From Candidatus Omnitrophota bacterium (GTDB lineage: Bacteria > Omnitrophota > Gorgyraeia > Gygaellales > Profunditerraquicolaceae): DNA of 64,000 bases. Shown one piece after another: positions 57,229 to 58,659 of this stretch. Location of the stretch: positions 71,173 through 135,172 of the forward strand of contig JAQTQJ010000003.1 in the NCBI GenBank assembly GCA_028712255.1, in the 5' to 3' direction. A program made the position numbers and the translations under genes. Under the pieces are notes generated by a model that was given only the letters and a program-made list of their open reading frames with translations, was not told where the DNA came from and searched no databases. The first letter of the stretch is position 1, and each line of letters begins with the position of its first letter.

Positions 57229-58659
57229 ATGATGAAGTCTGAAATGATTCTTAAAATGATTGGTATGAATCTTAAAGAAAAAAAGCTTCTTTTTGCTTTT
57301 GCATTTTTAATCTTGCTTACGCTGGTTATTGGGTTGGTGGGAATATCCCAGATTCAGGGGTTGACCCGTAAGATCGAAGATTTAGGAAAAAATAATTTAA
57401 CTTTGGAATCGGCGGTTTTGGAGATGCGTATAAAAAATGCTAATTATGCGATGGGTATCCGTAATTATTGTTATTGGCGCCTGGCACGATACTTGGGGGC
57501 AGTGCCTATGGCCGCAGGTGCCAATAAAATTTTTTCAACGGGAGAAAGTTTTAAACAGCAATTAAAACTTTACCGCCAGAATGCTTATTCAAATCAGCAG
57601 AAAGCTTGGGCCAATCAGGCAGGTTTGGCCTTTGATAATGTATTTATTCTAGGTAAAAAAATTATCCAGATGGCTGATCAGAAAGGATCAGATAGGGTTA
57701 ATGAAGCAGTTAATGGTTTGTTAATGAGTTTTGAAAATCAGATTTTTAAGATTGATGAATTTTTGGATAATTCTATGGGTAAATCTAATCTAGAAGAAGT
57801 GCGGCGGCAGATGGTTTTAGCCAGAGTGGACAAAGCGCGCTCAATTTTTTTCTTGAGTATTAGTTTGGTTACAGCGCTAATTGTAGGGACTTTAATTGCT
57901 GTAGCAGTTTATCGGCGCAGAATTAAAGAACGGCTATTGCGGCAGGATATGTATAATCGGATGATTAATGTTGAAGAGGATGAGCGCCGGCGCCTGTCTA
58001 ATGCCGTGCATGATGAAATGGGGCAGGACTTGAGCGCGCTAAAAATTTATCTGGGCCTTATTTCTCAGGAACTATCAGGAAAAGCGTCATTGCGAGGAGC
58101 CGCAGGCGACGCGGGCACTTCGTGTCCTCGCAATGACACAGTGGATTTAATGGCAAAAGCAGAACAATGCAGGAAAATAACCTCCGGATTAATTGAGAAA
58201 AGCCATAATATTGCCTTTCTCCTGCGGCCGCCGGATTTAGATGAGGTAGGTTTGGTGGAAAGCCTGGAGGCCCTGCTTTTAGAGTATAAACATCTTACTG
58301 GCATTGATTACAATTACCAGAAACCAGGGGCATTTTTTGAACTTTCTGCGGAATATAGCTTACTTTTTTACCGGATCACCCAAGAGTTGCTAACGAATAT
58401 GGCCAAACATTCCGGAGCCAAACATGTAGAATTAAAATTAGAGCAAAAAACCGGTAGCGCAGAGTTGTCTTATATGGATGACGGGCAGGGGTTTGATTAT
58501 AACAGAATGTTTAAACATCCTTTCCGCCGCAGAGAAGATAAATTAAGGTTTGGGCTTTTAGGTTTGCAAGAAAGAGTGGAGTTACTTGATGGCCAGATGC
58601 AGATAAAATCCAGCGTAGGCAAAGGCACAAATATTTTTGTTTTGTTACCAATTTATTAA
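57229..58659 (+). CDS. sensor histidine kinase (HisKA_3 / NarX-LiaS type), carrying an in-frame 19-codon palindromic-element insertion
   Basis: Two TM helices, an H-box AVHDEMGQDLSALK and a HATPase_c domain. Codons 286-304 (ASLRGAAGDAGTSCPRNDT) are encoded by a repeat copy. Confidence 0.8.
   Translation: MMKSEMILKMIGMNLKEKKLLFAFAFLILLTLVIGLVGISQIQGLTRKIEDLGKNNLTLESAVLEMRIKNANYAMGIRNYCYWRLARYLGAVPMAAGANKIFSTGESFKQQLKLYRQNAYSNQQKAWANQAGLAFDNVFILGKKIIQMADQKGSDRVNEAVNGLLMSFENQIFKIDEFLDNSMGKSNLEEVRRQMVLARVDKARSIFFLSISLVTALIVGTLIAVAVYRRRIKERLLRQDMYNRMINVEEDERRRLSNAVHDEMGQDLSALKIYLGLISQELSGKASLRGAAGDAGTSCPRNDTVDLMAKAEQCRKITSGLIEKSHNIAFLLRPPDLDEVGLVESLEALLLEYKHLTGIDYNYQKPGAFFELSAEYSLLFYRITQELLTNMAKHSGAKHVELKLEQKTGSAELSYMDDGQGFDYNRMFKHPFRRREDKLRFGLLGLQERVELLDGQMQIKSSVGKGTNIFVLLPIY
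58084..58139. mobile_element. palindromic element (outer arms only) inserted in-frame in the histidine kinase
   Basis: gcgtcattgcgaggagccgcaggcgacgcgggcacttcgtgtcctcgcaatgacac. Confidence 0.75.

Follow-up and report, generated by a model that had tools for sequence, protein, structure and literature searches.

A 64-kb stretch of a Candidatus Omnitrophota genome (here called the window) carries a 56-nt palindrome at positions 58084 to 58139, inside the gene for a sensor histidine kinase. Judged from alignment with orthologues, the palindrome is shown to be an in-frame derivative of an inverted dimer of the repetitive extragenic palindromic (REP) type, one whose central hairpin has been deleted, whose interior is inverted in a sister allele, and which represents one of several architectures at the same site. 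We regard it as very probable that the element is a decayed, nonautonomous REP-type repeat that spread as a single-stranded DNA hairpin, was reshaped by palindrome-driven rearrangement, and is tolerated, close to neutrally, at the tip of the dimerization and histidine phosphotransfer (DHp) domain. Orthologous contigs are designated below by L numbers and kinase cluster representatives by P numbers.

The palindrome reads GCGTCATTGCGAGG-AGCCGCAGGCGACG-CGGGCACTTCGTGT-CCTCGCAATGACAC, with outer arms of 14 nt each that are complementary at 13 of 14 positions. As the original prediction had held, it is inserted in frame: it is free of stops within the 476-amino-acid open reading frame (ORF) at 57229 to 58659, encodes ASLRGAAGDAGTSCPRND(T) as residues 286 to 304, and adds 18 amino acids relative to orthologues; the predicted translation includes GAAGDAGTSCPR as an insert-derived tryptic peptide. 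The left arm, GCGTCATTGCGAGG (58084 to 58097, plus strand), consists of a CGTC tag, the stem half ATTGC, and GA, and is followed by the left variable module AGCCGCAGGCGAC(G) (58098 to 58111, plus strand), a mini-hairpin GCC-GCA-GGC with a GNA triloop. This module recurs, reverse complemented, in the copy at 60200 to 60236 within a DUF2341 gene and in L003, and GGAGCCGCAGGCGAC occurs 5 times among the 320 units surveyed in all fetched DNA (about 1.9 Mb). Beyond the deletion junction, which falls after 58111, the right variable module CGGGCACTTCGTGT (58112 to 58125, plus strand) is a mini-hairpin GGCAC-TTC-GTGyC and the complement-strand form of GGGCACGAAGTGCCC; the right arm CCTCGCAATGACAC (58126 to 58139, plus strand) is read P-R-N-D-T. 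With at most one mismatch allowed, the arm motif CTCGCAATGAC occurs 11 times in the window against 0.46 expected, a count reached by 0 of 100 shuffles. The kinase site is also stably folded as RNA (-31.2 kcal/mol, z = -4.2), with 0 of 200 shuffles folding equally well. The excess over shuffles and the RNA fold together indicate that the observation is real and nonrandom.

In three orthologues, L001, L003, and L005, a full 79-nt dimer occupies the same codon position. These homologues share the segment together with a palindrome that is fuller than the one in the window, and not as a protein segment lacking a DNA palindrome, the finding that would have spoken against an inserted element. The window copy corresponds to such a dimer from which precisely one piece is missing, the perfect hairpin AAGCAATCTCTGAAAACGAGATTGCTT at its center (27 nt, nine codons). 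Across the single 27-nt gap, the remaining 52 positions agree at 51 with the reverse complement of the L003 dimer and at 50 with the L001 dimer. The label "outer arms" given to this copy in the original prediction has to be given up, since both variable modules are retained and only the central hairpin is missing. When the L001 dimer is compared with the reverse complement of the L003 dimer, 78 of 79 positions are identical and the junction lies at the same position, which indicates that the interior was flipped between the inverted arms or that an inverted copy took its place. The host frame is open through either orientation, and the encoded peptides differ, the inverted copy giving SLRGHEVPEAISFSEIASSPAAPRND versus SLRGAVGDEAISENEIASGTSCPRND.

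Further states of the same loop were identified. A single unit is present in L016 (+10 amino acids) and also in P0037, P0041, P0047, and P0049; L021 has two units in the opposite arrangement, and the arm in P0055 is read in another frame (..ALAMT). Units of a second family, of CGTC-1 type, are nested in the loops of L014, L023, P0027, and P0034 together with remnants of the first family, and encode the peptides SHPRESG..IPASAGMT and DSRLRGND. A 21-nt piece of the CGTC-1 arm has been amplified in tandem in P0040 (521 amino acids; AGMTEES, five-fold) and in P0065/L023 (9472 to 9750; GNDEG, three-fold), lengthening these loops by 56 to 71 amino acids. In L013 (10787 to 10930), this DHp loop is 11 amino acids longer owing to a perfect palindrome of 36 nt, CCGGGGACACATTGCTTT/AAAGCAATGTGTCCCCGG, that is unrelated to the element. 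In total, the loop is lengthened, by 2 to 71 amino acids, in 33 of 117 cluster representatives (28%), one of which (P0080) is an artefact of the motif search. Most orthologues lack the segment altogether: it is absent from 84 of the 117 representatives, where the spacing from LSALKIY to FLLRPP is 36 to 37 amino acids, and among the 42 species-level loci where the loop could be located, 30 are without it, with a spacing of 36 to 38 amino acids versus 55 in the window.

All deep clades of a neighbor-joining tree are empty, and filled and empty states alternate within one crown clade. The closest empty allele is P0002 at the protein level, and DNA comparisons with empty alleles used L020 and L007. 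L001 (+33 amino acids) and the empty L020 are 89 to 100% identical, mostly 96 to 100%, in 45-nt blocks outside the loop, with 78% in the last block, and L014 (+26 amino acids) is about 95% identical to the empty L015. Such near-identical filled and empty alleles imply that turnover has been recent. The kinase of L011 is a mosaic: at the nucleotide level its N-terminal half is 82% identical to the window and its C-terminal half 67%, with a switch near the DHp loop, from which it follows that recombination within the kinase gene occurs. A concentration of breakpoints at the loop was considered and rejected as a general pattern, with only L011 clearly discordant between its N- and C-terminal halves and L014 and L015 weakly so.

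The kinase gene (57229 to 58659, plus strand) is intact and has Pfam matches to 4HB_MCP_1, HisKA_3, and HATPase_c. HisKA_3 is matched only as far as residue 283, or position 32 of the 68 in the profile, just ahead of the insert. When the 18 amino acids are removed in silico, the match extends over positions 1 to 68 of 68 and scores 31.6 bits, compared with positions 1 to 32 and 24.6 bits before removal; for many insert-bearing orthologues no HisKA_3 domain is recorded. An AlphaFold2 model (mean predicted local distance difference test score [pLDDT], 79.5) has a helix at residues 159 to 291, a coil at 292 to 300, and a helix at 301 to 332, the coil being the region of lowest confidence (pLDDT below 50 at 297 to 300). 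The top matches in a fold search were DesK cytoplasmic domains, and a sequence search of the PDB with the kinase gave no match at an E value of 1e-5 or lower. The helix-coil-helix of the model and the fold match place the insert, as modeled, at the tip of the DHp α1-α2 helical hairpin, which it is predicted to extend.

The cognate NarL/LuxR-type response regulator (Response_reg and GerE; 58660 to 59301, plus strand) follows the kinase without a gap, its start codon abutting the kinase stop codon, and this pairing matches the definition of HisKA_3 sensor kinases (HisKA_3 and HATPase_c with a NarL/LuxR-type regulator). The order secretin, kinase, regulator, and DUF2341 gene is conserved in orthologous contigs, which supports orthology. 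Upstream lie two adjacent secretin paralogues (53409 to 54938 and 54910 to 57144) that share a 300-nt stretch of 71% identity (54426 to 54725 and 55924 to 56223). The ratio of nonsynonymous to synonymous substitution rates (dN/dS) of the kinase is 0.09 to 0.17 against eight orthologues (0.15 to 0.17 versus insert-bearing and 0.09 to 0.14 versus empty alleles), and the gene is thus still constrained, under purifying selection.

The expectation that the same palindromic element occurs elsewhere in the window held, with seven further copies of the family found. The eight copies comprise six full inverted dimers (71 to 91 nt), the decayed dimer in the kinase, and one single unit; five are intergenic, all between codirectional genes and 5 to 63 nt past the upstream stop, and three are intragenic, in the kinase gene, folC, and the DUF2341 gene. 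The plan of the dimer is GTGTCATTGCGAG, a variable module, CGAAGCAATCT, an AT-rich loop, AGATTGCTTCG, a variable module, and CTCGCAATGACAC, and the folding energies of dimers built on the ATTGC core run from -37 to -51 kcal/mol, with z scores of -5 to -11. Intergenic full dimers are located at 14840 to 14913 (24 nt past the upstream stop; -51.2 kcal/mol), 37918 to 38000 (-50.8 kcal/mol), 38747 to 38829 (5 nt past the upstream stop), and 44467 to 44548 (-47.5 kcal/mol), and the intergenic dimer at 33738 to 33808 is a sister variant in which ATTCT/AGAAT replaces ATTGC/GCAAT in the arm and inner motif. No target-site duplication is visible at the flanks of the eight copies, and an Rfam scan of the window returned only four tRNAs and no family matching any copy. 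A YchF-like ORF bracketed by the dimers at 37918 to 38000 and 38747 to 38829 (38041 to 38742, plus strand; 233 amino acids) matches only the C-terminal YchF domain and may represent an N-terminal truncation associated with the repeat.

The two other intragenic copies illustrate that more than one frame is tolerated, as had been proposed: the arm is read PRNDT in the kinase, FRNDT in the 998-amino-acid ORF of the DUF2341 gene, and LAMT in folC. The folC copy (40821 to 40911) is a full dimer in frame in the ORF at 40524 to 41957, and comparison with Thermotoga maritima FolC (1o5z) reveals a 41-amino-acid insertion (amino acids 95 to 137) exactly over the element. The DUF2341 copy (60200 to 60236, in frame in the ORF at 59500 to 62496) is a single unit, the right half, and reads IASSPAAFRND. 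At this loop most orthologues are about 4 amino acids shorter and lack the unit, and L005 has REP units there. Orthologous DUF2341 genes carry REP-derived inserts at two loops, one of them the loop of the window half-copy (L005, 10940 to 11100 and 11039 to 11200; L012, 12741; L021, 13940; L023, about 12300), encoding VIASPEGAKQS.., IASSPAAPRND.., and DSRFRGND.., and the DUF2341 gene is a second recurrently occupied gene. Each orientation of the element has one frame with a fixed TGA in the arm, the other frames being open save for stops in the AT-rich central loop, and the frames SLRG, HCE, VIA, RND, and AMT are all used within long ORFs. Of 60 arm occurrences in about 0.75 Mb of Omnitrophota DNA, 26 lie inside long ORFs, in a sample biased toward kinase and DUF2341 genes.

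Across the survey, the unit measures about 32 to 38 nt, and two inverted units around a short AT-rich loop make up a dimer of 75 to 90 nt. We read the unit as a putative hairpin with a (C/T)GTC tag, a 5-bp stem ATTGC/GCAAT, a GA/GA step (possibly tandem sheared G·A pairs) with an extra A, a GC stem that varies, and a GNA triloop. Neither the sequence nor the length of the segment from GTCATTGCGA to GAAGCAATC is fixed, with 204 distinct modules of 5 to 32 nt, the commonest being GCGAAGC (23 of 320 units), GCCGAAGGC, GGAGCGAAGCGAC, and GGGCACGAAGTGCCC. Stems within these 204 modules are longer than in shuffles (mean, 3.17 versus 2.09 bp), and the four commonest loops are GAA, GCA, GTA, and GGA. 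GCGAAGC is a classic, very stable DNA mini-hairpin. The joint change of arm and inner motif in the 33738 variant, from ATTGC/GCAAT to ATTCT/AGAAT, is required by a single-unit hairpin but not by a long dimer hairpin, which points to the hairpin unit as the conserved feature. GCAAT is most often followed by CCAG (59 of 320 units), then by CTCA or CTCG, and in the window copies by CT.

The same dimer, with the same 10- and 11-mers, is found on plasmids of Methylosinus trichosporium OB3b, Novosphingobium aromaticivorans, Aulosira laxa, Halomonas species, and Legionella lytica, starting with TGTCATC in Halomonas and with CGTCATT in the others. The unit also occurs in Desulfobacterales and Deltaproteobacteria bins and, among the matches listed, in at least 120 IMG/VR contigs of 31 to 72% GC, at up to 9 units per 10 kb. 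Some of the copies in viral contigs (L065 to L184) lie between phage portal and structural genes, and phage carriage is a possible route for spread between phyla. The peptides SLRG.., VIA..KQS, ..PRND, and ..LAMT are, we presume, also those of hypothetical proteins in metagenome bins.

A candidate mobilizing enzyme was sought with tblastn, using IS200 TnpA and Escherichia coli REP-associated tyrosine transposase (RAYT) query sequences. The window does encode a RAYT-type Y1 transposase (45675 to 46163, minus strand; PF01797, E = 3e-14) with the HUH motif DHLHLI and YIHNNPVK. On either side of the gene stand GTAG-type palindromes of about 50 nt, at 45625 to 45674 and 46165 to 46214 (GTTATCCACAGgGTAGGGGA..TTTAAA..TCCCCTAC..), with more copies at 11591 to 11640, 24863 to 24912, and 59338 to 59387; the RAYT and these palindromes are a separate REP-RAYT system in the same genome. 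Clustering of ORFs for a recurrent gene bracketed by two units, over about 1.9 Mb, gave only phage portal-like and DUF2341 proteins, and a search of 120 viral loci for Y1-type genes gave none. The gene next downstream of the response regulator, some 2 kb past the kinase, is Y1_Tnp-like (PF01797, E = 4.5e-11 in L043) in a deep-branching Omnitrophota clade that includes Velamenicoccus archaeovorus (L034, L036, L039, L042, L043, L047, and L048). Its conserved position suggests a domesticated gene, and it was rejected as the mobilizer in view of this constant regulator neighbor and its lack of linkage to the element.

Comparison of the alleles thus shows a dimer lying in the codons for the loop joining α1 and α2 of the DHp domain of a DesK-like HisKA_3 kinase, and a loss of its central perfect hairpin in the window genome that has left both outer arms and both variable modules. 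The gene could have survived because the net length is a multiple of three, the frame avoids the TGA, and the 18 added residues would, from the anatomy of the domain, sit at a solvent-exposed hairpin tip. By analogy with REP elements, the repeat itself may have moved as a hairpin of single-stranded DNA that leaves no target-site duplication, through some enzyme, or by recombination with other copies. Later steps driven by the palindrome would include inversion between the arms, slippage during replication that removes the hairpin, and exchanges in which other copies or alleles take part. Survival at the kinase site would then reflect structural permissiveness rather than targeting, and the effect of the 18 residues on the protein is most likely neutral or slight.

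It is conceivable that the insert has instead been co-opted, such that a longer DHp tip alters the kinase (its direction of autophosphorylation, insulation from other partners, or stability) or that the mRNA hairpin tunes translation or decay, and that selection retains it. The DHp loop is known to set cis versus trans autophosphorylation in histidine kinases. Insert-bearing alleles persist in several species-level lineages under purifying selection, more than a quarter of the cluster representatives are lengthened at this one place, the element is far better conserved than the neighboring coding DNA, and the RNA hairpin is stable. We nevertheless consider co-option unlikely. The encoded peptide is not conserved, as the two readings of the inverted and uninverted dimers illustrate, lengths vary over the whole range given above and palindromes of unrelated sequence occupy this very position, some alleles that carry the element are nearly identical to others that lack it, and the element is found in unrelated genes and in intergenic DNA as well. 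What is conserved is conserved at the DNA level and is common to copies in other phyla.

A classical MITE (miniature inverted-repeat transposable element), with the 13- to 14-nt arms serving as terminal inverted repeats for a DDE transposase acting in trans, would account for the near-perfect terminal repeats, the small size, and the many dispersed copies, and in-frame MITE insertions are reported in other bacteria (PMC5896051, PMC10969869). We judge this very unlikely nonetheless, given that no window copy has a target-site duplication, single units stand alone (60200 to 60236; L016), covariation lies in the unit and not in the dimer, units whose fixed motifs enclose variable modules are conserved in different phyla and on contigs of widely differing GC content, and the fetched DNA showed no transposase whose ends match. 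That the segment might belong natively to the kinase, stem from misassembly at a repeat, or be a pseudogene lesion seems scarcely credible. Repeats can indeed yield chimeric metagenome assemblies, and Pfam recognizes only part of the HisKA_3 domain here. Independent ENA and JGI assemblies, however, carry fuller versions at the same codon position in the same gene neighborhood, the ORF is intact with all kinase motifs and the low dN/dS described above, and all deep-branching orthologues are without the segment.

Several observations sit uneasily with the preferred account of a decayed, near-neutral REP-type repeat. Among kinase alleles whose synonymous divergence (dS) is 0.8 to 1.7, the element is 95 to 99% identical, while the 30 nt upstream are only 43 to 77% identical. 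Such identity at saturated dS is not predicted by a single old neutral insertion, and the divergence immediately upstream rules out recombination of the whole cassette as a full explanation. Possible explanations are that the element was reinserted at this position, that other copies in the genome converted it, or that the DNA itself is constrained. The loop flanks cannot be aligned between filled and empty alleles and the junctions cannot be mapped to the base, and the statement about target-site duplications therefore does not extend to the kinase site itself. As for an enzyme, the window RAYT is rejected as the mobilizer of the family because its own flanking palindromes are of the different, GTAG type, and in partial genomes totaling about 1.9 Mb none of the copies had a Y1-type gene as its neighbor. 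It could be speculated that the element is actively maintained at the DNA level, by recopying or gene conversion from a master sequence or by a cross-phylum, phage-carried factor that recognizes the hairpin, with protein loops acting as "parking sites"; we put this forward tentatively, as a rather doubtful extension.

A third repeated hairpin family was noted in the window, GGGGACGGTTCTC-(T/A-rich)-GAGAACCGTCCCC followed by T runs, located at gene ends (7479 to 7520, 21533 to 21574, 23967 to 24008, 26450 to 26491, 28792 to 28858, 37855 to 37885, 40390 to 40420, 47914 to 47955, and 62580 to 62621). It looks like a shared intrinsic-terminator sequence.

The kinase orthogroup presents a series of states (empty, single unit, dimer, inverted dimer, dimer minus the central hairpin, nested second family, and tandem amplification) that documents the evolution of palindromic repeats inside coding DNA, with an unusually frequent recurrence at one site. 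If the speculative reading of active maintenance is correct, permissive loops such as the DHp tip may be long-lived "parking sites" in which units swap, flip, and nest, the orthogroup could serve as a natural system for finding how orphan CGTC-type REPs propagate, and the repeats would be a source of strain-level variation in two-component signaling proteins. For annotation, one repeat family accounts for three in-frame insertions in 64 kb of an uncultivated Omnitrophota genome and breaks domain recognition, leaving half of HisKA_3. A single genome, moreover, holds CGTC-type REPs beside a separate RAYT with its own GTAG-type REPs.

Comparison with known repeat systems places these observations into context. 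The Rickettsia palindromic elements (RPE), reportedly described by Ogata et al. in 2000, lie in frame in many unrelated protein genes, at positions compatible with fold and function, and the proteins are still expressed. The likeness to the element studied here is that of palindromic repeats in frame in unrelated genes. RPE-1, however, is longer (about 100 to 150 nt) and specific to Rickettsia, whereas the kinase-element family is pan-bacterial in sequence. The peptides of RPE-4 and RPE-6, in a comparison limited to the peptides as tabulated, differ from those of this family, and we know of no described RPE feature that corresponds to an orthologous loop being occupied again and again by inverted, halved, and nested units.

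REPIN-RAYT systems, which are said to have been worked out by Bertels and Rainey, by Nunvar, and by Ton-Hoang, offer a further parallel. REPINs are inverted REP doublets that form long hairpins, with singlets also occurring, leave no target-site duplication, and have a "master" sequence that is long conserved. The family described here similarly has inverted doublets and singlets, no visible target-site duplication, and a conserved sequence, and a RAYT-type gene is present in the window. It differs in that the single-copy RAYT of REPIN systems is flanked by units of the same family, whereas the window RAYT is flanked by GTAG-type palindromes; in that the present units start with (C/T)GTCAT and not with the GTAG (GT[AG]G) 5' motif; and in that REPINs usually stay within one lineage and are inherited vertically, whereas the present unit is common to several phyla and to phage contigs. 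At the level of the module, the commonest sequence is identical to the extraordinarily stable DNA mini-hairpin d(GCGAAGC) reportedly characterized by Hirao and coworkers, and the remaining modules likewise have a short GC stem capped by a GNA triloop; that work is oligonucleotide biophysics and concerns no repeat family, and the module fold proposed here is read from sequence alone.

A close match is the superfamily of CGTC-tagged REPs, which has an unpaired CGTC tag (or TGTC or CCTC), a stem of 8 to 9 bp beginning with AT, a loop of 4 to 5 nt, and a short, three-base unpaired tail that is mostly CCA (PMC3733652). These REPs are described as mostly inverted dimers downstream of genes, present in five phyla and without a dedicated transposase (PMC3733652; Di Nocera, De Gregorio and Rocco 2013). 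The superfamily includes CGTC-1 (Neisseria dRS3, Rickettsia RPE-6), CGTC-3, and CGTC-4 (RPE-4), and N. aromaticivorans, one of the species whose plasmids carry the present dimer, is said to hold CGTC-2 (PMC3733652). CGTC and GTAG REPs and RPEs inside genes encode 7 to 30 amino acids, histidine kinases being included among the hosts, with two such REP insertions in the intragenic-REP table (PMC3733652). Omnitrophota lie outside that survey (PMC3733652).

The present family fits four hallmarks of the superfamily. The kinase copy starts with GCGTCATT; of six further left arms in the window, five begin with GTGTCATT and that of the 33738 variant with TTGTCATT, all of which carry TGTC. All copies have an AT-first stem (ATTGC...GCAAT, or ATTCT...AGAAT in the 33738 variant), and the prevalence of inverted dimers, the five intergenic positions downstream of genes, the three intragenic ones, and the lack of a linked transposase in the partial genomes searched all agree with the superfamily. 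The tail is CCA or CAG in proteobacterial and cyanobacterial copies, and the CGTC-3 peptide VIAGLDPAIH back-translates to the same outer stem, ATTGC...GCAAT. The stem and loop are different, with what appear to be five Watson-Crick pairs, a GA/GAA step, a further stem of 2 to 6 bp, and a 3-nt GNA loop, and on this account the family is not filed under any of the four named CGTC families, in a comparison with CGTC-1 to CGTC-4 made on text descriptions and the peptide table. None of the SLRG, VIA..KQS, RND, and LAMT peptides is among the entries of the intragenic-REP table (PMC3733652), and a literature search for the exact motifs returned no relevant match, the family being unnamed in the searchable literature. 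The second family at the kinase loop has peptides that match or closely resemble those of CGTC-1: CGTC-1 peptides tabulated in the survey are SFPRKRES, VIPAKAGI, IPASAGMT, and DSRLRGND (PMC3733652), the last two of which recur verbatim, and SHPRESG resembles CHSRESGNP. The kinase insert is, in conclusion, an in-frame REP/RPE-like palindromic repeat, a kind of event that is already known, and its features of interest are the recurrent occupation of one protein loop and the orphan, pan-bacterial repeat unit.

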